Source of the DNA: Octopus sinensis | Taxonomy: Eukaryota | Reading direction: 5' to 3' | DNA: 64,000 nucleotides | Assembly: GCF_006345805.1 (NCBI RefSeq) | Contig: NC_043012.1 | Coordinates: forward strand, 35,154,001 to 35,218,000 | In this document: positions 12,461 through 62,908 of the stretch, piece after piece | How positions within the stretch are numbered: the first letter of the stretch is position 1 | Layout of the letters: every line of letters starts with the position of its first letter | Notes under the pieces: generated by a model | Told to the model about the DNA's origin: nothing | What the model saw: only the letters and a program-made list of their open reading frames with translations | The model's database searches: none | Position numbers and translations under genes: made by a program

Positions 12461-14143
12461 ACCTTTGTTGACAGAAATTAAAAAAAAAAAAAGAAAAAGT
12501 AATCTTCGCCATGCACCGACTGGTTGTTCATATTTTGCAGCCATATATTGAAAGAATTTCACATTTGCAAAGTATTAAGTTCTTATTTCTTAAAGTAGAG
12601 CGTCTTAGAAATTATTTAAACTACTTTCAGTTGCAAAAGATTCTATAGAGATACCATAAGTCATGGGAATTTTTATAGTGTTCCGGCAGAATGTAATGGA
12701 GATATTTATATTTACTACTGAGGCGTATGAGAAAAATGGAACCCCGGCAGCAGATGTTATTAATATTTTCGCTAATTAGAAAGCAAGTTTAGAAATCCGA
12801 TATGGTGTGAAAGTTTTGGGCTATCAAGTTCACTAAATGTTTTAAAAATTTGGATGTTACAGAGAAACTAAGGAGATTATTGATGGCTTTGAATTATTTT
12901 ATCTAAGGGGGAAAGAATTTCACCATCGACGGAAATTCGATATTGTCACTCTTCTACACTATTCAAAATACTACGTTTGTTGAAGTTTTAAAATCAAATG
13001 ATAAACTAAATCTAAATAGCATGTTGTCAACTTAATGTGACAGTCCCATAAAAGGGGAGAATGCTACTGTTATTTAGCCCTGGGAAACACCGTCTCCTGT
13101 TGGACTTGACACATCTACTGTCTCTACTTTGAAAACATAAGGACACAAATTCACATTGCGCACGCGCATAGAGACACACCTGCTGGTGTTAAATAACTGT
13201 TTTATATAGATCTCTTTATAGAATGTACCGTTCGAAGTAAATATTCAATATGTCTGAGCATTCCCCGTTTTTTTATGCAAACACTGGGATATGTGAGTCT
13301 TTTTAGTGTAAAGGAACGAATGTAATTTACTCTTTTTTTTTTCTACTCTAGGCACAAGGCCCGAAATTTTGGGGAGGGGGACAAATTTATCGACCCTGAT
13401 AGGATGAAAGGCAAAGTTGATCTCGGCGGAATTTGAACTCAGAACGTACGGCGTGCTAACGTTTCTGCCTGTTCGCCGCCTTGTAATTTACTCTTTTCCG
13501 AACATCCATGCTTATGTCTAGAAATGAATTTATTATGCAACTATGAGTTTTATTTAGATTGTTCTGGATATTGAATATTAGGTTAAATATTGAATATTAA
13601 GTATTCTAGGTCAGCCTTTCATCTCTTGACATTTTCAAGTGTGTTGATTACAAGCATACAATCAATAAATCCGTTACACATATATTCATGCATTGCGCGC
13701 GAAAGAACGAGATAATGCTAAACTAAACAAATACACGCATACAGACAGACAGACACACACACGCACACACACAAACACGTACGTGCGCGTACATACACAG
13801 ACAGACAAGCAGGCAGGCAGGCAAGCAGGCAGGCAGGCAAGCAGGCAGGCACACACTGACACACAGGCACATATGTTAGCTCGGTTACATCAAAGAGACA
13901 AATGAATAATGGTAGCTGAATGAAAACAGTGAATTTAGACGCTGTTGTCCTAAGAAAGAAAAATATTCACTGCGTAACGCAATCCTATATGTTCTTTGAT
14001 AAAAACGGGAATTGGAATGTCTTGAATCGCGTTTATTCCATTGGAATTGGTGTGTCTAAAAGAGCAACTACAACACGATCCAATAGATTATACTAAGGAA
14101 GTCTGGAAATGTTGATAAATCTAGGAAGTCTATCGTTCGAAAT

Positions 14144-17100
14144 AAACAGGTAAGTCATAAGGTAACAAACAGGTAAGTCATAAGGTAACAAACAGGTAAG
14201 TCATAAGGAAACAAACAGGTAAGTCATGAGGTAACAAACAGGTAAATCATAGGTAACAAACAGGTAAGTCATAAGGTAACGAACAGGTAAGTCATAAGGT
14301 AACAAACAGGTAAGTCATAAGGTAACAAACAGGTAAGTCATAAGGTAACAAACAGGTAAGTCATAAGGAAACAAACAGGTAAGTCATAAGGTAACAAACA
14401 GGTAAGTCATAAGGTAACAAACAGGTAAGTCATATGGTAACGAACAGGTAAGTCATAAGGTAACAAACAGGTAAGTCATAAGGTAACAAACAGGTAAGTC
14501 ATAAGGTAACGAACAGGTAAGTCATAAGGTAACAAACAGGAAAGTCATAAGGTAGCAAACAGGTAAGTCATAAGGTAACAAACAGGTAAGTCATAAGGAA
14601 ACAAACAGGTAAGTCATAAGGTAACAAACAGGTACGTCATAAGGTAACAAACAGGTAAGTCATAAGGTAACAAACAGGTAAGTCATAAGGAAACAAACAG
14701 TGAAGTCATAAGGAAACAAACAGGTAAGTCATAAGGTAACAAACAGGTAAGTCATGAGGAAACAAACAGGTAAGTCATAAGGAAACAAACAGTTAAGTCA
14801 TAAGGAAACAAACAGGTAAGTCATAAGGAAACAAACAGGTAAGTCATAAGGAAACAAACAGTTAAGTCATAAGGAAACAAACAGGTAAGTCATAAGGAAA
14901 CAAACAGTTAAGTCATAAGGAAAAAAGGTAAGTCATAAGGTAACAAACAGTAAGTCATAAGGAAACAAACAGTTAAGTCATAAGGAAACAAACAGTTAAG
15001 TCATAAGGAAACAAACAGGTAAGTAATAAGGAAACAAACAGGTAAGTCATAAGGAAACAAACAGTTAAGTCATAAGGTAACAAACAGGTAAGTCATAAGG
15101 AAACAAACAGTTAAGTCATAAGGAAACAAACAGGTAAGTCATAAGGTAACAAACAGGTAAGTCATAAGGAAACAAACAGTTAAGTCATAAGGAAACAAAC
15201 AGGTAAGTCATAAGGAAACAAACAGGTAAGTCATAAGGAAACAAACGGTTAAATCATAAGGAAACAAACAGGTAAGTCATAAGGAAACAAACAGTTAAGT
15301 CATAAGGAAACAAACAGGTAAGTCATAAGGAAACAAACAGGTAAGTCATAAGGAAACAAACAGTTAAGTCATAAGGTAACAAACAGGTAAGTCATTAGGA
15401 AACAAACAGTTAAGTCATAAGGAAACAAACAGGTAAGTCATAAGGTAACAAACAGGTAAGTCATAAGGAAACAAACAGGTAAGTCATAAGGAAACAAACA
15501 GGTAAGTCATAAGGAAACAAACAGGTAAGTCATAAGGAAACAAACAGGTAAGTCATAAAGTAACAAACAGGTAAGTCATAAGGTTACAAACAGGTAAGTC
15601 ATAAGGTAACGAACAGGTAAGTCATAAGGTAACAAACAGGTAAGTCATAAGGTAACAAACAGGTAAGTCATAAGGTAACAAACAGGTAAGTCATAGGTAA
15701 CAAACAGGTAAGTCATAAGATAACGAACAGGTAAGTCATAAGGAAACAAACAGGTAAGTCATAAGGTAACAAACAGGTAAGTCATAAGGTACGAACAGGT
15801 AAGTCATAAGTAACGAACAGGTAAGTCATAAGGTAACAAACAGGTAAGTCATAAGTAACAAACAGGTAAGTCATAAGGAAACAAACAGGTAAGTCATAAG
15901 GTAACAAACAGGTAAGTCATAAGGTAACAAACAGGTAAGTCATAAGGTAACGAACAGGTAAGTCATAAGGTAACAAACAGGTAAGTCATAAGGTAACAAC
16001 AGGTAAGTCATAAGGTACGAACAGGTAAGTCATAAGGTAACAAACAGGAAAGTCATAAGGTAGCAAACAGGTAAGTCATAAGGTAACAAACAGGTAAGTC
16101 ATAAGAAACAAAACAGGTAAGTCATAGGTAACAAACAGGTACGTCATAAGGTAACAAACAGGTAAGTCATAAGGTAACAAACAGGTAAGTCATAAGGAAA
16201 CAAACAGTGAAGTCATAAGGAAACAAACAGGTAAGTCATAAGGTAACAAACAGGTAAGTCATAAGGAAACAAACAGGTAAGTCATAAGGAAACAAACAGT
16301 TAAGTCATAAGGAAACAAACAGGTAAGTCATAAGGAAACAAACAGTTAAGTCATAAGGAAACAAACAGGTAAGTCATAAGGAAACAAACAGTTAAGTCAT
16401 AAGGAAACAAACAGGTAAGTCATAAGGAAACAAACAGTTAAGTCATAAGGAAAAAACCAGTAAGTCATAAGGAAACAAACAGTTAAGTCATAAGGAAACA
16501 AACAGGTAAGTCATAAGGTAACAAACAGGTAAGTCATAAGGAAACAAACAGTTAAGTCATAAGGAAACAAACAGTTAAGTCATAAGGAAACAAACAGGTA
16601 AGTCATAAGGAAACAAACTGGTAAGTCATAAGGAAACAAACAGTTAAGTCATAAGGAAACAAACAGGTAAGTTATAAGGTAACAAACAGGTAAGTCATAA
16701 GGTAACAAACAGGTAAGTCATAAGGTAACAAACAGGTAAGTCATAAGGAAACAAACAGGTAAGTCATAAGGAAACAAACGGTTAAGTCATAAGGAAACAA
16801 ACAGGTAAGTCATAAGGAAACAAACAGTTAAGTCATAAGGAAACAAACAGGTAAGTCATAAGGAAACAAACAGTTAAGTCATAAGGAAACAAACAGTTAA
16901 GTCATAAGGTAACAAACAGGTAAGTCATTAGGAAACAAACAGTTAAGTCATAAGGAAACAAACAGGTAAGTCATAAGGAAACAAACAGGTAAGTCATAAG
17001 GAAACAAAACAGGTAAGTCATAAGGAAACAAACAGGTAAGTCATAAGGAAACAAACAGGTAAGTCATAAGGAAACAAACAGGTAAGTCATAAAGTAACAA

Positions 17101-17325
17101 ACAGGTAAGTCATAAGGTTACAAACAGGTAAGTCATAAGATAACAAACAGGTAAGTCATAAGGTAACAAACAGGTATGTCATAAGGTAACAAACAGGTAA
17201 GTCATAAGATAACAAACAGGTAAGTCATAAGGTAACGAACAGGTACGTCATAAGGTAACAAACAGGTAAGTCATAAGGTAAGTCATAAGGTAACAAACAG
17301 GTAAGTCATAAGGAAACAAACAGGT
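14144..17325 (+). repeat. 23-bp tandem satellite (aaacaggtaagtcataaggtaac), about 138 units
   Basis: Head-to-tail units with variants ggtaac/ggaaac and caggt/cagtt. No spacers. Confidence 0.98.
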
Positions 17326-30947: not shown

Positions 30948-33900
30948 TATTCAGTAGTCTTATTTTTATCACTTACTTTCAGTTCACTACCGAGCACAGC
31001 TTTGTGTGCCATGGTTATGTGTTGTGGTTTGTTGTGATGCTCTTATTTTCACCGTATTGAAAGTGTTTTACGTAGGATGTGTGCGGTGCCTAGTAGGGCT
31101 ATTTTTCGTATGTTATATATAATTGTAAGCCCTGATGTTTTTGTTATGTATTTGTTCGAAAGGGTTTTTTTTTATCATACCTAATGCGCCAACCATAATA
31201 AAAATTGTTTCTGTTTTTAGGCTCCACATTCGAGTTACCTCCCTTTCCAGGAAGGTCTTTGTATTTTTAAAGTTTCTCCATTTCTTTTAGAGAAACATTG
31301 TCATCTGTTGGTATTGATACATCGATTAGAAAGCAGTTTTTTCTTGCTGATCTCTGACAACTATATCCAGCCTATTGGCCTTAATTTCTCTATCTGTGTG
31401 TATTGGCATATCCCAGAGTGTGGTTGCTTTCTCGTTTTCTGTGACCTTTTCTGGCGTGTGCCTATTCCATCTTTTTTCTGTTGCTATTCCATAGTGTTGG
31501 CATAGCTTCCAGTGTATGTAGGTCCCAACTCTGTCGTGTCTGTGAATATATTACTTCTTAGCCAGGACTGGCAGCCAGAGATGATATGATTTATTATTTC
31601 TTGTCCATCTCCACAAATTCTGCAGTTACTTGTTGTTTCTTTTGATTATATGGTTTTGCTAATTTCTGGTGGGGAGGCTTTGGTCTTGTGCTGCAATTCA
31701 AAATCCTTCAGTCTCTGCTTTCAGTCCTGAGCTTCTCGACCATTGCTAGGATTTTACTTTGTCTATTTCTTTTCTGTTTAGTTTAATCCAGTATTTGCCA
31801 TGAAGGGACTTTTCTTGCCATCGTTTCATCGTGATCCTTTGCTGTTCTAGTTTTAGTTTGGACTTCAGTTGTTTTACAGTTTTTGTTGTTTCTTCTTTTT
31901 CTTCATAGTTGTTAGGTACTATGACTTCTTTTTGTATTTGTCAGTTTCTTTAAAGACTGAAACAGTTTTTTTTTGTTTTGTTCGTGTTTTGTGGCTATTT
32001 GTATCAGTTTTCCTTGCTTCTGAAGTAGGTATATTTGCAGTCCTATGGTGGTTATTTTGTAATAGTTTTATAGCTGTATAAGGCCTCTACAACCTTCCAT
32101 ATGTTCTATATATAACCTTTCTATGTCAGATTTTGGGTGGTGCATCCTAAATCCTGTCATTATTTTTCTTGTTTTCCTGTCTATTTTGATTAGTTCATTT
32201 AGAGTCCAGTTAAGAATATCGTAGATGTAACGTATAACAGGGATGGCTAAAGTGTTAATACCTATTATCTTGTTTTTCGCATTGAGCTCTGTTTTCAGTA
32301 TTGATCTAACTCGTCTATAGTATTCCTGTCTTATCTTCTCTTTCATTTGTGTGTGTTGTATCGTATCTCCTAGTTCATTGATTCCTAACTATTTGCATGT
32401 CTAGCTTTGGTCTAATTCTCTTATTTCATTTGCTTTATCTAGTGTGATGCTGCTACTCTTAATTAGTTTTCCTCTTTTCAAGGTTGCTTTGGTACTTTTT
32501 TCTAAACAAATTTCTAAACAAATAAACAAATTCCTTGTTTATTTCTTTGGTAAGTCCATGTACTGTCTGTAGTAATGTTTCCAGCTGTTTATCATTTATA
32601 GCGTACAGTTTTAGATCATCCATAAATGAGAGATGGCTGATTGTTTTGCCGTAGCAGTTGTATCCACATCCAGTTCTGTTTAGCATGTCAGATAAAGGTG
32701 TCAGTGCCAATAAAAAAAGGATGGGTATGGCTTTAGCTTTTATGAATCCCTCTTTTGTCTGGAGCTGTAGCACTATCCGCCCATTATTCATGGAATGTTT
32801 TATATATTTTATAATCATTGGTTCTACCTTGTTCATGGCCAGTGTTTCTAGGAACCATGTGTGGAAAATACTATCAACAGCCTTTCGATAATCGATCCAG
32901 GCCATACTTAGACCCTTTCTTCTTTCTGCGACTGTCTTCAGTCATGGCTTTATTGATCAGTAGCTGATCTTTACAGCCATATGAGCGCTTGCAGCAACCC
33001 TTTTCTCCTGGAAACAGGTCGTTTTCTTCCAGATGTTTGCTCATTCTCTGCGATATTATTGCAGTAAAGGCTTTGTAAATTGTAGGGAGACAAGTTATTG
33101 GTCTGTAAATTCGTGGGTTTGCTGTTTCAGTGTATTTAGGGATTAGAACAGTTTTTCCTTCCATGAGCCATTCAGACATTGTCTCTAGCTCTGCTAGTAT
33201 TTCATTAAATTTCTCAGCCAGCTTTTTATGAGTTCCTCTTAGGTATTTTTACCAGAAGTTGGGAATCTTGTCATGCCCGGGTACTTTCTAGTTGCTTAGT
33301 TTTTGCAGTGCCTGGGTGACCTTTTCAGTTGTTATATGGGCCCAGAGTTGTTCAGGTGCTGAGTTCGTTGTTTTGATAGACTTTTTCTGAGGTTGTTCCG
33401 TCGCAGAGCACATTTCTTTCCAAAATTCTTCCACTTCTTCTGCTGTTGGTGCTGCATTGATGTCTATTTTATTTTTGCCAAGTTCTTGGTAGAATCTTTT
33501 GATGTTGGAGTTGAACTGTTTGTTTTGTTCAAAGAAACGTTAGCATTTCTCATACCGGCGGATTCTCTGTGCTTTGGCGAGAATATCCTGTTCTAGCTAT
33601 TCCTTTACCTCAGCTATACTTTGTTCTCTAATTTATGTATTTATGTAGTATTTATTTTCTCTTCTTTTTGTTTAGTAGTGTTGATTGTCTACTAGTTTCA
33701 TTAAGGATTCACAGATCCTTTCTCTTATTTTCTATTTTTTTCTGGATATCATTAATCCACAGAGTTTTTTTGAGTGGTGATGTTCCTATTTGGATCGGTT
33801 TTGTGGGGTATCCAGCTTCCTTTGTTTCCATAGAGGCTGCTCTATATATTATATCATTTTGCCTAGTCATATTGACATTTGTTTCTGTGGTTATTAGTTC

Positions 33901-38245: not shown

Positions 38246-38825
38246 ATATACCAGTAATATTCTTGGGTTAAATACCAGCCACTTACGAATTTGTTAAGAA
38301 CTCCTTCTGCAGTGTTTTGAAATCCTCACTTTCAACCCTCCTCCTCCTTGATACTGTTGATTCTGTTATTTTCAGTGTTAATTTTGGGTGGTCCAAATGA
38401 GGATTTTAACTCTCATTTCTAGCGGGTAGACACTTCAGTGTGTGCTTATGATTAATACACATGCACGCACATACACACAAACACACACACACACAGATGA
38501 GCATATAAGAGCAAACACACACACACACACACACACACATATGCACATATTGCAGAAGTAATAGAGTGACTCAAGGTTCCAGAGTTTCGTGCCATTCATC
38601 AAGTGATAAACGCACGAAACTCTCAGACCTTGAGTCACTCTGTTACTTCTGCTAGATATGAATAAAAATACACAGATACTCATATTTTGAGTTCTACTTT
38701 TCCTGTTTGCATCATCCTGTCTGTCTGTCTGCCTGTCTGTCTGTCTGTATGTATGTATGTATGTATGTATGTATGTATGCATGTATGTGTGTATGTATGT
38801 ATGTATGTATGTATGTATGTATGTA

Positions 38826-40143
38826 TGAAGGCACTGTGAATAAAGATAGAGTGACCCGAGAATATTACACCAGACTTAAGAAAATATGGAAGTCGGAACT
38901 CTCTTCTTACAACAAAATAATATCCCACAATGCATTTGCAGTACCAGTGCTGATCCCAACATTTGGGATACTTGATTGGTCTGTAGAGGAAATCCACTCC
39001 ATAGATATCAAAACCCGCAAAATCCTGACAACAACTGGGAACTTCCACAGAAACAGCGATGTTAACAGGCTCTACCTAAGAAGAAATGAAGATGGTAGAG
39101 GCCTGAGATCAGTGCAGACGGCCTTCGAATGCCGTATGGTATCACTCAGGCAGCATCTGCAAAATAACAGCAGCAAAAATAAATATATAAATGCAGTGCT
39201 GAATAGTGAAGTGAGCAGCAGTGTACGAGTTGGCAGTGAACTCCTCAAGAAGCACTCTCTTCCTGATGATCTCCAATACAGCCCCAAAACAGCTGAGCTC
39301 TCTTACTCCAGAGAAGACTTCTATTGGAAAGCACTCAGCATACAAAACATAAAAAGACTCTGCATGGGTATGTTACCCGGAAGCTTGAAGAAGTTAGTAG
39401 AATTGATACACAACACAGCCGCTGTTGGACACAAGACCACTACATCACACCACCCTTTGAAGGCTATGCGTTTGCAATCCAAGAACAGGAGATTGTCACA
39501 AAGTACCTGATGAACAAGAGAGACAGTGACGCTCTTGTAATCCCAAGGTGCAACCGCATTTGTAGGCTACGTCACGATTATGTGGAAGACATTACGCATG
39601 TGATTAGCAGCTGTCCTAATATGTCGCCACGGTACTTCCACACTATGCGGCACGATGTTGTCGCTAAAACAATTTACAATGCTATCCGCAAAAAAAGACT
39701 GTCCTGAAATAAACTTAGAAAATCCCTCTGTTATGGAATACATTCATAAACACCAACTCAAGAAGGAATATTGGTGGAATATTCCCATCAAAACTTCTGT
39801 CAAATGTAAACATAGCAGGCTGGATATTGTTGTTTGGGACAGGGGCAAAGGTATGTGCCATCATAGAGGTCAGCTGCTCTGCAGATATAAATAATATCTC
39901 TTTGAAAATCAAAGAAAAAGGGCATCTATGGACAATTGCTTCGAAACCTCCAGCTTCTATATCCAGTCTATGAGTTCACCATATTCATACCAATAATGAT
40001 TGGGGCACTAGGTTTTGTTAGTAAATGCTTAAAGGAGAATCTGGGATTTTCAGAAAGAGAAACTGGCCGGCTGATCTGTACATTACAAGTCCAGTCTGTG
40101 AGTGGAACAGTAAAAATATGCAAGACTTTCTCAAGTTCCAAAT
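38826..40143 (+). mobile_element. Second R4/Dong-like LINE 3' fragment (different subfamily)
   Basis: EYYTRLKKIWKSELSSYNK, RLYLRRNEDGRGL, LHGY, EGYAFAIQEQ, CRL..EDITHVISSC..RHD, RLDIVVWD, IPIMIGALG. Several frameshifts. Confidence 0.9.
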
Positions 40144-40543
40144 GTGAATTTATGCGTGTTAACTACATCCCAAAGATGGAGCCTTGTATCTTTGTTGGGA
40201 ACCGGCTCCCTCCTTAGGGGAAGATTTATAATAATTAAAAAAATAGAAGAGACATACATAATACCAGTCATTGAGGAATTAGGTTTCTCAAAAGTAGGAG
40301 GGAGAAGACCACAGCTCCAATCCATCAACGGAACTGTAAAAATCTGTAAAACCTTCCAGAGGTTTATCGTTTGAGTATATATGCGCATGTCTAGATATGC
40401 GAGTATATGCATTAGAATACATACGTAAAATAAACATACAAATTTCCATGTATACATATATATATATATATATACATACGTACACACATACATGCATATA
40501 CACATATATACATATATACAAGCATAAATATATACATACATCA

Positions 40544-44779: not shown

Positions 44780-44835
<56 letters not shown>

Positions 44836-44882
44836 CGACGACGACGACAACGGCGACGGCGACGGCGACGACAACAACAACA
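44733..44882 (+). repeat. Compound (CAA/CAG/CGA)n microsatellite
   Basis: Seen directly; it abuts a truncated family C SINE. Confidence 0.95.
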
Positions 44883-45339
44883 GACCGGGCGTTGTGCGTG
44901 TTTATTGAGCGAAAACGCCTAAAGCTCCACGATGCTCCGGCAGAGAATGGTGGCGACCCCTGTTGTACTCTTTCGCTCCAATCTTCTCACACTCTTTCTT
45001 CCTGTTCCTTGTCCCCGACTTCCTACGCAACCGCTGAGCCTGGATGCGCATTCATCCATCCGTCGATGCTCTCGGTGTCGGGGCTTGACTTGCTTTCTCT
45101 TCTGCGGGTCTTACGAATAGCAAAGGACCACGTTTCGGACTTCTCCCATCTTGCGAGCTCTGGGACGAAGACCGTTCGCTCAACAGCAAAAGCAACAGCA
45201 ATGACAACAAAAACAACAGCAACAGCCAGTTTACTTACTTGTTTATAGATTTTTCTTCTATTTTAAAATTTATCCAGCCGAAATGTGCTTTTTTCCTTAA
45301 TTTATGTATTGTCTTGTATTCTTTCAGAAATCCAGCAAA

Positions 45340-45489
45340 ATGCAGGTTCTACCCTTGGCTCATGATTTCCCTAGCAAGCACATGACCTTTTCTGGTCTGC
45401 TTGCTGTGCTGGTTGGTTTGTTCACTTTCATAATATCTTGCGTCTACGCAGGAGGCATGATCATTGGAACATTGATCTGTTGTTTATTT
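45340..45489 (+). CDS. Four-TM MS4A/CD20-like protein, coding exon 1 ([50 protein letters not shown])
   Basis: Acceptor gtattctttcag|45328; ATG in aaaATG context; donor ttt|gtgagt; 150 nt, phase 0. Encodes TM1 and half of TM2. Confidence 0.85.
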
Positions 45490-46581: not shown

Positions 46582-46647
46582 CTTACTATAGTCGGTGTGT
46601 TCCTCATTCTTACTGGTCTCTACGTCTTGAAACCAATAGTGGAAAAT
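46582..46647 (+). CDS. Four-TM protein coding exon 2 (LTIVGVFLILTGLYVLKPIVEN)
   Basis: tttgtttttcag| ... aat|gtaagt; 66 nt, phase 0-0; completes TM2. Confidence 0.85.
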
Positions 46648-50502: not shown

Positions 50503-50583
50503 ACCTTGATCCAGATGGTGTTGATTGGTCTCGGTTTATTATTTGCCTTCATCTCATTTTGTATATTTTGTGCCGTTGCAGAT
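50503..50583 (+). CDS. Four-TM protein coding exon 3 (TLIQMVLIGLGLLFAFISFCIFCAVAD)
   Basis: actccgtttcag| ... gat|gtaagt; 81 nt, phase 0-0; TM3. Confidence 0.85.
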
Positions 50584-53385: not shown

Positions 53386-53745
53386 CAACTCACAGCTTGT
53401 ATTGCTAGGCATGCTGGAAAGTGTCAGCTGTCCACAGCCAACAGACTAACGTGACACTTGTTTACTGGTCATGCTTCAAGAACCCTGCGAAGAATTCTTG
53501 CAGTTCCAAGCAATGCTAGTTTTTGTAGGTGTTCTACCTTCACACTTGCACCAATCTTTTTCAGCCATGCTGGTAGTTGAGTGCTGATACTTCCAAGTGC
53601 ACCAATTACCCTGGGTATCACCTCTACTCTCTTCATTGACCACAACCTTTCTATTTCCCACTTTAAATCGTCAAAGCTGTTTATTTTTTCTTCTTCTTTC
53701 ACATTGACCCTGTTGTCACCGGGGCTTCCTATGTCGATTATCATA
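53386..53745 (-). mobile_element. Third R4/Dong-like 3' end (RLE C-terminus, UTR, TAA tail)
   Basis: IIDIGSPGD..KEEEKI..DLKWEIERLW..VIGALG..LQKLALLGTARILRRVL*. (TAA)n on both sides. Confidence 0.85.
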
Positions 53746-53805
53746 CATGTACTTTATTATTATTATTATTATTATATTATTATTATTATTATAATTATTA
53801 TTATT

Positions 53806-54668: not shown

Positions 54669-54676
54669 GCACCAGC
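54669..54676 (+). CDS. Four-TM protein micro-exon 4 (8 nt, gcaccagc)
   Basis: tttttttatcatttcag|GCACCAGC|gtaagt; strong sites; frame is restored by the 13-nt partner. Confidence 0.6.
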
Positions 54677-54976
54677 GTAAGTACAACCTCTACTTTCACA
54701 TTTCTGGGACAATATTTGATAGGTAAGAAGGTAAAAAAAGGAACAGGATATCGAAGAAAGTACTCTCCTTTATTTCTTCTCAGCGATTTATATCCACTTT
54801 TAAAATAAGACTGTCCTAAAGAACATACATACACACATACATAAATATATATGTCTGAGTGTAGCGATATATGTGTGTGTGCGTGTATGTGTGAATGTAC
54901 ATTTATTTATATAAATTATAAATACAGAAAGTGTAAGTTGAGTAAAATTATTTTACCATTAGCTTTCCATATTCAG

Positions 54977-54989
54977 CTACAATTCTTTC
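54977..54989 (+). CDS. Four-TM protein micro-exon 5 (13 nt, ctacaattctttc)
   Basis: ctttccatattcag|CTACAATTCTTTC|gtaact; donor is weaker; 8+13=21 nt gives APAYNSF. Confidence 0.45.
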
Positions 54990-55084
54990 GTAACTTACTA
55001 TCATGTACTAATAATTTATTTTATTTCATTTTATAATAAAAAATTATTTACATGTCTGTATTAATAAATATCTTCCTTATATCC

Positions 55085-56620
55085 CAATATTGACCACGAT
55101 GAAGGGGTAGAAGCTTGCATGGATGCCTTCGAAAAGCGGTCAGCCAAAATTATTCCATCAAATTTTCTCTGTAGATTATTGAGATTTGTGTTACAAAGTA
55201 ACACAATGAAGTTTAAACAAAGATTTTACCACCAGACGAATGATTGCGCCATGGTTACCCCCGTGGCAGTTACTTTCGCTAATGTCTTCATGACGAAATT
55301 CGACTCAGTTACTAAAGACATTCGAACCCTTTTATCGTCATGAACCAATACTCTGGTTACGGTTCATTGATGGCGTATTTTTATCTGGGGAGGATCACAG
55401 GATAGTTTAATGGAATTGCAATTCTGTGACCGTTGTACTAAAAGCTATGGCTTTAAATCCAACATATAATTTACGTCTAGTTTTCTGGAAGCAGAATAGG
55501 GACAGAGTTACTTTGCAAGCCCACGTCTTTCCACATTTATCTACCCCGCTGCTCCGATCATCCACACCATCTTATTCGGTGAAATCCGAAATCCCAATTT
55601 TTTAGGATAAAACGGATTTGTACTGACTGGAAACATGCAAATGCTTTTGTTTGTCATTATGTCAAACGCGGTTACAGTGAATAACGATTAAAGGAAATAG
55701 AAAATGAAATAGCTAATATTAGCAAAGACAGTCAAACCTACACGCATAATTTTAGTAAACACAATACAAGAAAAAGAAGAATACAATAGATGACATAATT
55801 CCTTTTGTGATTAACTGGCATTTCATAAGTGTTGCATGAAAGTTACTAGCATGTGGCGAAAAGATATCCTCGTTCAAACAGATATTTCCTCGGCTACCTA
55901 TTGACGGAATAAGAATAAAAGAGAATTATTGACCTCTCTTTCTGACTCCAAGAAAACGAATATTGGAGTATCTGCACGCTGTACCTTGAAAAACAGTTTC
56001 AAGAGAGGTAAGCCCTGTTCATTGTGCAACAACGTGAGTGAATTCCATCAGGAATCATAACAGAAATGTTATGATTTACACGGAAGATAGGACATGTAGA
56101 GATTTGGTGTACGCGGCAGAATGCACGGAACACAACTTGATTTATGTTGGTTGTACAACAGAACAATTAAACAAAAGGTTTAATGGGCACAGATTCGATG
56201 TCAGGCCCAATAACAGTAGTTTGACAGAACTTGCTGAACATTTCGTTTCAAACGACGGCAATTTTGAAAAAGATTTGAAAGTGCATATTCTCAGAATATG
56301 TTTGCGGGTTATTAACATCACGCCCTGGAGGAAAGAATATCAAGAGAATATCATCAAATTTATACAAAATTGTTTGATTAAATATTCTTTTTCTTTTCTT
56401 TTTTTCCTTCTTTTTTTCTATCTTTTTCTTTCCGCTTGTTATAAAAGTGAAACTTAAAGACTGATGATGTCATTCCATCAACGTGCGGACGCTAGTTGCT
56501 CTCGTTCATACTTCACATTTGAATTTCTATAATTTCAAATTCTTATCACTTCTTATTTTGAACTTGACAAAGACAGACTTACTTTCGAAATATCGTTCAA
56601 CCAATAAAATATCTTTTACA
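55085..56620 (+). mobile_element. Penelope-like element, degenerate (RT plus GIY-YIG)
   Basis: RT: FVLQSNTMKFKQRFYHQTNDCAMVTPVAVTFANVFM and WLRFIDGVFFIW. Endonuclease: LVYAAECTEHNLIYVGCTTEQLNKRFNGHR. Downstream ctgatga relic at 56461. Confidence 0.88.
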
Positions 56621-56691
56621 ATCGAATCGCGCTCTTCCTCTTAACTGTTTATCTTCGTGAAGAGTTACGTCAATCCTTTTTAAAATATTAT

Positions 56692-56729
<38 letters not shown>

Positions 56730-56836
56730 TTACTACTACTACTACTATCATTATTATTATTGTTGTTATTGTTGTTGCTGTTATCATCATCATTTGCATA
56801 TCTTTATTTCTCTCCTTCTTTACTTTGTCATTTCAG

Positions 56837-56848
56837 CTTTATTACACT
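56837..56848 (+). CDS. Four-TM protein micro-exon 6 (12 nt, LYYT)
   Basis: ctttgtcatttcag|CTTTATTACACT|gtaagt; symmetric phase 0-0; flanks are paralogous to those of micro-exon 4. Confidence 0.65.
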
Positions 56849-57599
56849 GTAAGTACAAACTTTACGTTTACATTTCTGGGACAATATTTAAGAGATAAGG
56901 AGGGGAAAAACCCGAGGAATATCGAAGAAAATACATTCTGTTAATTATTCTGGGCGATTTACATCCATTTTTAAAACAAAACTATTTCATAGGATAAACA
57001 TACATGCAGACACACACACACACACACGCAAGCACGCTCGCCCGCACACATACACACAACACACACGTGCGCTTATATGTTAATGATGCACATAAATACA
57101 TGGCAGGTATACATAATACTGAAGTGCTCATAAAGTAAACACATACAGACAAATATATAAATACACCAAAATTTAAAAAATAATGATAATATACAATCAA
57201 TGAAGAGACAAAAAAAAGAGTAAGATGATACATGTTGATTTTATTAGGTATTTCTGTTTATTTAGAAACCTACAATGAACAGATCATTTCACAGACGCTA
57301 AACTATAAATTTCACAGGGTACAACCTTAAAGTTGACACCACTCCGCGAAACGCAGAAAATTCCTGTCTCGCTATTGGCTAAAAGTACCCACTTTTTTTC
57401 CGATTATTAAACCTCTGTAATCTATTCCTCCAATTTTTTTCTCCACAACAGCATAACTTCACAGCAATGAAGCTGAAAGGCTGCATTATTAAAGCCGATT
57501 TTCAGATTTTTTACTTCTTTTTAAAAAATGCATATTTTGCGAATGAAAAAACTAGATCCGGCATGCCAAACCTAATAGCACCATCTGGGTGGTATATAA

Positions 57600-59532: not shown

Positions 59533-59643
59533 GGTAATAAAACCATTCTAGCTTTGAGCATCATCTCTCTGCTGCTGCTTATCCTAGTTATGCTCGTTTT
59601 AGGCCTACTTTTATTCATCGTCAACCGTTATCGTTCAAGCACT
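59533..59643 (+). CDS. Four-TM protein exon 7 (GNKTILALSIISLLLLILVMLVLGLLLFIVNRYRSST)
   Basis: gtttattattttacag| ... act|gtaagt; 111 nt, phase 0-0; NKT sequon, TM4, then basic RYR. Confidence 0.85.
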
Positions 59644-62165: not shown

Positions 62166-62515
62166 AAAATAAATATAAGAGAGTGGTCACTATATGGCTC
62201 ACTCTAGCACTAGTTAATCCAAAAGGTTTCAACCACCAAAAATACATGTTCCCATGAAAGTCAGTACGATTGTTAGCTCACACGGACAGGGCAAATAAAA
62301 ATAACAAAATACAGATTATTTTGGGACAATTGTTTCGCTATTAAAGCGAAACAATTGTCCCAAATAATCTGTATTTGTTATTTTTATTTGCCCTGTCCGT
62401 GTGAGTAACAATCGTACTGACTTTCATGGGAAACATGTATTTTTGTGGTTGAAACCTTTTGGATTAACTAGTGCTAGAGTGAGCCATATAGTGACCACTC
62501 TCTTATATTTATTTT
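62166..62515. repeat. Near-perfect palindrome (~175-bp arms, 5-nt loop)
   Basis: Centre tttcgct-attaa-agcgaaa; arms differ mainly by 1-bp indels. Confidence 0.95.
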
Positions 62516-62796: not shown

Positions 62797-62880
62797 ACCC
62801 ACACAACGACAACGTCGACAAGTCACGCAAAGACTGTGACAACCACCACCACCATTGAAACTCCGCCGGCCAGAGCGTAA
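62797..62880 (+). CDS. Four-TM protein terminal exon (THTTTTSTSHAKTVTTTTTIETPPARA*)
   Basis: cttttatcttccacag|; phase 0 matches exon 7; ends TAA; AATAAA follows. Confidence 0.7.
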   Translation, partial: THTTTTSTSHAKTVTTTTTIETPPARA

Positions 62881-62902: not shown

Positions 62903-62908
62903 AATAAA
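62903..62908 (+). promoter_or_regulatory. Candidate polyadenylation signal AATAAA
   Basis: 22 nt after the stop codon of the predicted terminal exon; could be chance in AT-rich DNA. Confidence 0.4.

Follow-up and report, generated by a model that had tools for sequence, protein, structure and literature searches.

A four-pass membrane protein gene and its relatives

The window, i.e., the whole stretch of 64,000 nucleotides of Octopus sinensis DNA that we analysed (contig NC_043012.1, positions 35,154,001 to 35,218,000), carries on its + strand a gene with five ordinary coding exons. Inspection of the splice sites showed that every junction between them is in phase 0. The exons are described below with the help of three relatives, the Octopus vulgaris model P0001 and the Argonauta hians models P0002 and P0003:

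45328..45489, + strand: exon coding for TM1 and the first half of TM2 (96% identity to P0001; splice sites)
46582..46647, + strand: phase-0 exon that completes TM2 (second half) and encodes the TM2-TM3 loop (splice sites; match to P0001)
50503..50583, + strand: exon coding for TM3, phase 0 (splice sites; aligns with P0003 and P0002)
59533..59643, + strand: exon coding for TM4, beginning with GNKT, whose N-x-T corresponds to NET in P0003 (splice sites; alignments of the relatives)
62797..62880, + strand: last coding exon, with a Thr-rich tail and the stop (matches the C-terminus of P0003)

Together, these large exons amount to about 500 coding nucleotides and keep their frame against the relatives. 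The first three agree with P0001 at 97 of 99 residues, and the tail part at 54 of 54. An AATAAA polyadenylation signal is found at 62903, 23 nt 3′ of the stop. The ATG of the first coding exon lies at 45340 and, since the homologues stay open in frame 5′ of it, the true start is uncertain. Immediately 5′ of this exon, a GC- and CpG-rich stretch (44800-45200), in which a clear donor was not found, is probably the promoter or a first exon. Matched by the O. vulgaris model as well as by an Argonauta orthologue, the four-pass membrane protein gene is, judged from sequence, a real one.

The hydropathy profile displays four hydrophobic segments after a polar N-terminus, and the tail past TM4 contains four K/R against one D/E, which favours an inside C-terminus. 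From hydropathy and charge, the TM3-TM4 loop is predicted most likely to face outward. Hence, the micro-exon candidates described below lie, as a sequence-only reading of this DNA had proposed, between the TM3 and TM4 exons of a four-TM gene, most likely within an outer loop. The same reading had placed an NKT glycosylation sequon next to this loop. The sequon is indeed present, and is kept in P0003 as NET, but its Asn lies only 3 residues before the hydrophobic run of TM4. Glycosylation follows a distance rule of 12-14 residues from a TM helix. In a published study, sites had to lie 9-11 residues or more away from an interfacial helix to be glycosylated efficiently (PMC11837994). Because of the short distance between the Asn and TM4, use of the sequon is doubtful.

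Homologue searches gave matches in 1/34, 2/641, and 4/7999 candidates, and a search of 1.84 billion protein representatives returned five proteins, one of which (P0004, an unrelated repeat ORF) was dropped. The remaining ones, P0001, P0002, P0003, and P0005 (from Octopus bimaculoides), belong to the same family and are all unnamed hypothetical proteins; no correctly spliced orthologue was found in these searches. By their common TM4 and tail exons, P0001 and P0003 are orthologues of the gene. In P0002, two four-TM units are joined in one model of 325 aa, with TM3-TM4 loops of different lengths, and this model may represent two neighbouring genes fused by the predictor. Moreover, the source genome contains the first exon of a paralogue (47% identical; G000:C16:29088161-29088006), followed by an assembly gap, and no further exons of it were found in 380 kb. 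As these searches found relatives only in Octopus and Argonauta, the family is apparently octopod-limited, absence outside octopods being weak evidence.

Membership in the MS4A family, to which the sequence-only reading had likened the protein, was not borne out. Neither P0001, P0002, P0003, and P0005 nor four of the window exons match PF04103 (CD20/MS4A) at E values up to 10, and the locus is absent among the 34 PF04103 matches of the source genome. The best of these (G000:C8697:138078-138362), at 34.5 bits, is over the cut-off and contains no stop; it may represent either a genuine MS4A or a match caused by low complexity. In the Atlas, a score of 0.88 to a cluster that is 52% CD20 constitutes a weak lead, and the first 99 residues lead to MARVEL with scores of 0.82-0.84, all below 0.9 and as weak as the CD20 lead; PF01284 (MARVEL) gave no match in the Pfam scans of family members and window exons. 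The two predicted models of P0002 are of low confidence (mean pLDDT 49.5 and 59.2). With them, Foldseek found no match at E 0.001, its weak rows including three Fc-epsilon-RI entries (best E 2.3), and the best VIA Z of 9.8 was to unrelated helical bundles. Among solved structures, a single irrelevant match was obtained (E 0.57). A chemosensor role has no support beyond analogy.

Duplicated units with probable micro-exons in the TM3-TM4 intron

Three pieces bounded by AG and GT are found in the TM3-TM4 intron, exactly where three micro-exons had been proposed:

54669..54676, + strand: 8-nt candidate, unit 1; shifts the frame as assembled, likely for want of one base of an in-frame ATS exon (rank 1/1290)
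54977..54989, + strand: 13-nt candidate, judged to be due to chance (rank 46/1290; no duplicated flank)
56837..56848, + strand: very probable 12-nt symmetric micro-exon coding for LYYT, unit 2 (rank 2/1290; read as FITL by the O. vulgaris model, whose frame is shifted there)

The phase 0 assumed for the TM3 and TM4 exons is confirmed at their splice sites, and the frame arithmetic, once recomputed, is right: four of the eight inclusion combinations preserve the frame. The three pieces nevertheless differ greatly in their signals. Using a rough splice matrix made for this analysis, in which both strong acceptors profit from a T-rich microsatellite, the 8-nt piece scores 18.5 and the 12-nt piece 16.1, i.e., first and second among the 1290 AG..GT pairs of the intron, and both equal or exceed the large exons of the gene. 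The 13-nt piece scores 4.4 and ranks 46th, with an acceptor at -0.6 and GTAACT as donor. In a background of 988 kb strand-bases of the same genome, pairs scoring as high are expected 0.01 (8-nt), 0.07 (12-nt), and 29 (13-nt) times per 8.9 kb, the first two values not being independent since the two pieces are duplicates. Upstream, the AG-free run extends over at least 297 nt for the 8-nt piece and at least 170 nt for the 12-nt piece, while a rival AG is located 12 nt upstream of the 13-nt piece. Thus, two of the three proposed micro-exons stand far above chance and the third remains at background level. We rejected the 13-nt piece as an exon on account of its score, of the upstream AG, of four other stop-free candidates which would mend the 8-nt frame and which all outscore it, of its lack of a duplicated flank, and of its lack of support in the relatives. 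It looks picked to close the frame rather than for its own signals, and we consider it very improbable as a real exon. On the contrary, the 12-nt exon is in all probability real.

The 8-nt and 12-nt pieces are tandem duplicates, i.e., copies of one unit, a relationship that the sequence-only reading had missed. They are 70% identical over 337 columns, with acceptors identical at 11/12 nt and donors at 11/12 nt. Directly after the donor, the flanks are identical at 40/46 nt, though the exons themselves differ in length and sequence. The duplicated flanks and the element that separates them are located as follows:

54677..54830, + strand: donor-side intron flank of unit 1 (118 of 158 columns match the flank of unit 2); a second donor follows 54722
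55068..56340, + strand: decayed retroelement between the two units, GIY-YIG-bearing (PF01541 at 22.9 bits, cut-off 22.6; many stops in all frames)
56849..57001, + strand: donor-side intron flank of unit 2, duplicate of the flank of unit 1

A search of the source genome recovered exactly two copies of the unit, both of them here, and a metagenome scan with the unit flank gave 0 matches. We assume the retroelement to be probably Penelope-like, its class name and its likeness to a reverse transcriptase being presumed. Elsewhere in the window, broken reading frames were observed at 32071-33248 (-), 38662-40214 (+), and 53472-53753 (-), which we take to resemble LINE-type reverse transcriptases, as well as a tandem array at 14139-17325 (23-nt unit, 137 copies, 93% matches).

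The same loop in Octopus vulgaris and Argonauta

The evidence from other species comes from decoding three automatically predicted gene models, of which two are clearly mis-spliced, with exon borders deduced from protein rather than DNA. Indeed, the public models of both orthologues, P0001 and P0003, appear to be mis-spliced across this very loop. Past the TM3 exon, P0001 reads AD-ATSAMT, then a donor flank that has been read through, GNH, a second read-through donor flank, FITL, and finally the TM4 and last exons. The two read-through flanks, in different frames, each agree with the unit flank of the window at 14/15 residues. The tail that begins with FITL corresponds to bases 2-12 of the 12-nt exon, followed by its donor and the window exons (54/54 residues), and P0001 is out of frame from the micro-exon region to its end. 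The residue preceding FITL is R, instead of the S expected from the bases of the window, and one base therefore differs somewhere. Provided that the same second donor (after 54722) serves as splice site, the GNH piece comes out at exactly 9 nt, coding for A[TI][TI]. Residues 100-102 are ATS, which is one of the 19 tripeptides that the 8-nt exon could encode after insertion of a single base, a coincidence of about 0.5% by chance; ATSAMT may also be a single 18-nt exon. Taken together, O. vulgaris appears to possess at least three units, namely the 12-nt exon and two or more others, against one other here. In the TM3-TM4 intron of the window, we found no third flank and no unit coding for AMT, ATS, or A[TI][TI] followed by GT.

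In Argonauta, the loop of P0003 consists of QARM, a piece of 97 residues starting with VR, VGQSNYAIRI, the 97 residues again with one difference, GAQGNYQA, and the TM4 exon. The VR start fits a read-through GTAAG donor. While the repeated flank differs at 1/97 residues, the short pieces differ at 3/4 and 3/6. The Argonauta repeat gave no match to the window intron, and P0003 would represent an independent case of tandem duplication inside the TM3-TM4 loop, though its near-identical repeat could be a false duplication. In both species, the models imply three or more short pieces in the loop, which differ from one another although their flanks are near-identical.

These comparisons bear directly on the idea that neither unit is an exon and that both are copies of an intronic segment which contains splice-like motifs by chance. 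Both units do count as one event and not two. Against this, the O. vulgaris model includes the 12-nt piece together with its donor, only 0.01 and 0.07 such pairs are expected per intron-sized stretch, and both units sit in the single loop whose length differs between family members, which leaves this explanation scarcely credible.

They also clarify the nature of unit 1. Because the O. vulgaris model contains ATS at the matching place, we read the 8-nt exon as likely being a 9-nt in-frame exon of the ATS type (A-x-[ST]) that has one base missing. Isoforms combining the 8-nt and 13-nt pieces would therefore likely fall away. The sequence-only reading had proposed four in-frame loops, made from exons of 8, 13, and 12 nt of which the first two are coupled (APAYNSF). 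Its frame arithmetic is correct, and its full insert would end with YNSFLYYT, which by eye loosely recalls the TYN...LYLT of the first unit of Argonauta P0002. P0001, however, displays ATS and not APA, and contains no piece resembling YNSF; with the weaknesses of the 13-nt piece given above, this makes the model very unlikely.

Whether the base missing from the 8-nt exon reflects an assembly error or a true deletion is evenly balanced. As to assembly quality in this region, no frameshift relative to the other species is seen in the five large coding exons, which indicates that indel errors are infrequent. A near-perfect palindrome lies 7.5 kb away (62170-62515; 170 columns, 0 substitutions, 5 gap columns). 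It has the look of a fold-back artefact of long reads, or of an inverted repeat of very recent origin, and its gap-only pattern suggests that one-base errors were left uncorrected in this part of the assembly.

As assembled, inclusion of the 8-nt exon alone introduces a stop into the TM4 exon (at nt 19), and the next junction follows 92 nt later. Joining it to a cryptic acceptor 19 nt inside the TM4 exon was also considered, and does not restore the frame. Nonsense-mediated decay applies to stops that precede the last junction by more than 55 nt, as this one does, and the 8-nt exon could be a regulated poison exon, whose frameshift would tune the protein level through this decay. It has the strongest splice signals of the intron and is preceded by at least 297 nt free of AG. 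On the other hand, the closest relative seemingly has an in-frame 9-nt form, so that nothing points to a poison role being conserved; we thus hold little hope for this explanation.

A loop probably built from micro-exons and its known parallels

The TM3-TM4 intron contains two duplicated splice-competent units, and we think it reasonably probable that the predicted outer loop is built from micro-exons of this kind that preserve the frame and that likely vary in number and sequence from one octopod species to another. In this scenario, a local duplication would have copied an acceptor-exon-donor unit, and each exon of 9 or 12 nt could then be gained, lost, or skipped, leaving the helices untouched, because all introns are in phase 0 and units of 3n nucleotides can be added or removed freely. 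The outer loop would grow by local duplication in steps of 3-6 residues, species differing in the number of steps. Here, the 12-nt exon would add LYYT. The in-frame products expected are the loop with no insert and the loop with LYYT and, if unit 1 is truly 9 nt long, also ATS and ATS+LYYT; if it is truly 8 nt long, unit 1 would be a dead or decay-triggering exon. That skipping generates several in-frame loop variants in one animal seems to us slightly favoured.

Conversely, the gene may yield one constitutive product, in which the 12-nt exon is always included, unit 1 being a dead copy from which a base was lost once the retroelement had inserted. The length of the loop would then vary between species and not within individuals. 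The consensus donors of both units favour constant inclusion, the 8-nt exon by itself brings a stop 92 nt ahead of the next junction, and, with no insert, just 8 residues would separate the Cys of TM3 from the run of TM4, far below the loops of the Argonauta paralogues. However, a dead exon with the best splice sites of the intron would tend to spoil transcripts, and several differing units in two other species suggest that the array is maintained. We regard the constitutive product as unlikely, albeit a serious contender.

A broader proposal goes beyond loop growth by micro-exons, and we put it forward tentatively, with a rather low probability. The gene would encode an octopod four-TM surface protein carrying a combinatorial cassette in its outer loop, made of exons of 6-18 nt that arise by tandem duplication, diverge faster than their flanks, are shuffled by skipping, and serve in recognition (of self and non-self, pathogen, or ligand). 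The faster divergence of the exons is suggested by the 1/97 differences in the Argonauta flank against 3/4 and 3/6 in the short pieces, and by the 40/46 nt shared by the flanks in the window.

If transcripts agree with the micro-exon-built loop, this locus would be a compact example of micro-exons that are born by tandem duplication and reshape a single surface loop, in which the exons of an orphan, apparently octopod-limited membrane protein show signs of outpacing their flanks. If there is one isoform only, it would be an ordinary duplicated micro-exon in an orphan gene. The duplicated micro-exons would also account for the errors that the two public orthologue models contain in this loop.

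Several known systems offer parallels. MS4A proteins have four hydrophobic segments, a short first outer loop, and a variable second one. As predicted from its sequence, the octopus protein would resemble MS4A/CD20 in these respects, and it differs in that no family member scanned matches PF04103. Neural microexons are preceded by an upstream UGC motif, which is found at -42 for the 12-nt exon and is absent within 60 nt of the 8-nt exon. Compared with the symmetric length of the neural (Srrm-type) class, the 12-nt exon is symmetric, whereas the 8-nt exon is not as assembled, and is likely 9 nt in O. vulgaris. According to a study of fly microexons (10.64898/2026.09.05.749416), bilaterian neural microexons span 3-27 nt, mostly preserve the frame, and can remodel the protein surface. 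They are usually single and conserved, whereas the octopus units are locally duplicated and quick-changing. In the literature on octopus microexons and cephalopod MS4A, which we covered outside subscription journals and preprint supplements that may list these exons, no paper on this gene was found.

The closest parallel is with the schistosome micro-exon genes (MEGs). In two papers, these genes are described as having very small symmetric exons and exon skipping, with one exon duplication in MEG-3 reported to be tied to a transposon insertion (PMC4350168), and as comprising 10-20 exons and a signal peptide (PMC10526429). In a MEG, such exons account for most of the coding sequence, skipping yields a pool of isoforms seen among transcripts, and the product is secreted or anchored. 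The octopus gene shares with them tiny symmetric exons, long introns, poor automatic annotation, and a transposon beside a duplicated exon. Unlike them, it has two supported units, which represent 20 nt of about 520 coding nt, are confined to one loop of a four-TM mollusc protein, and are known here from genomic sequence. Furthermore, MEGs are restricted to flatworms, and the host here is an octopus. The gene is thus not a MEG but, by analogy, would work like a small MEG cassette.
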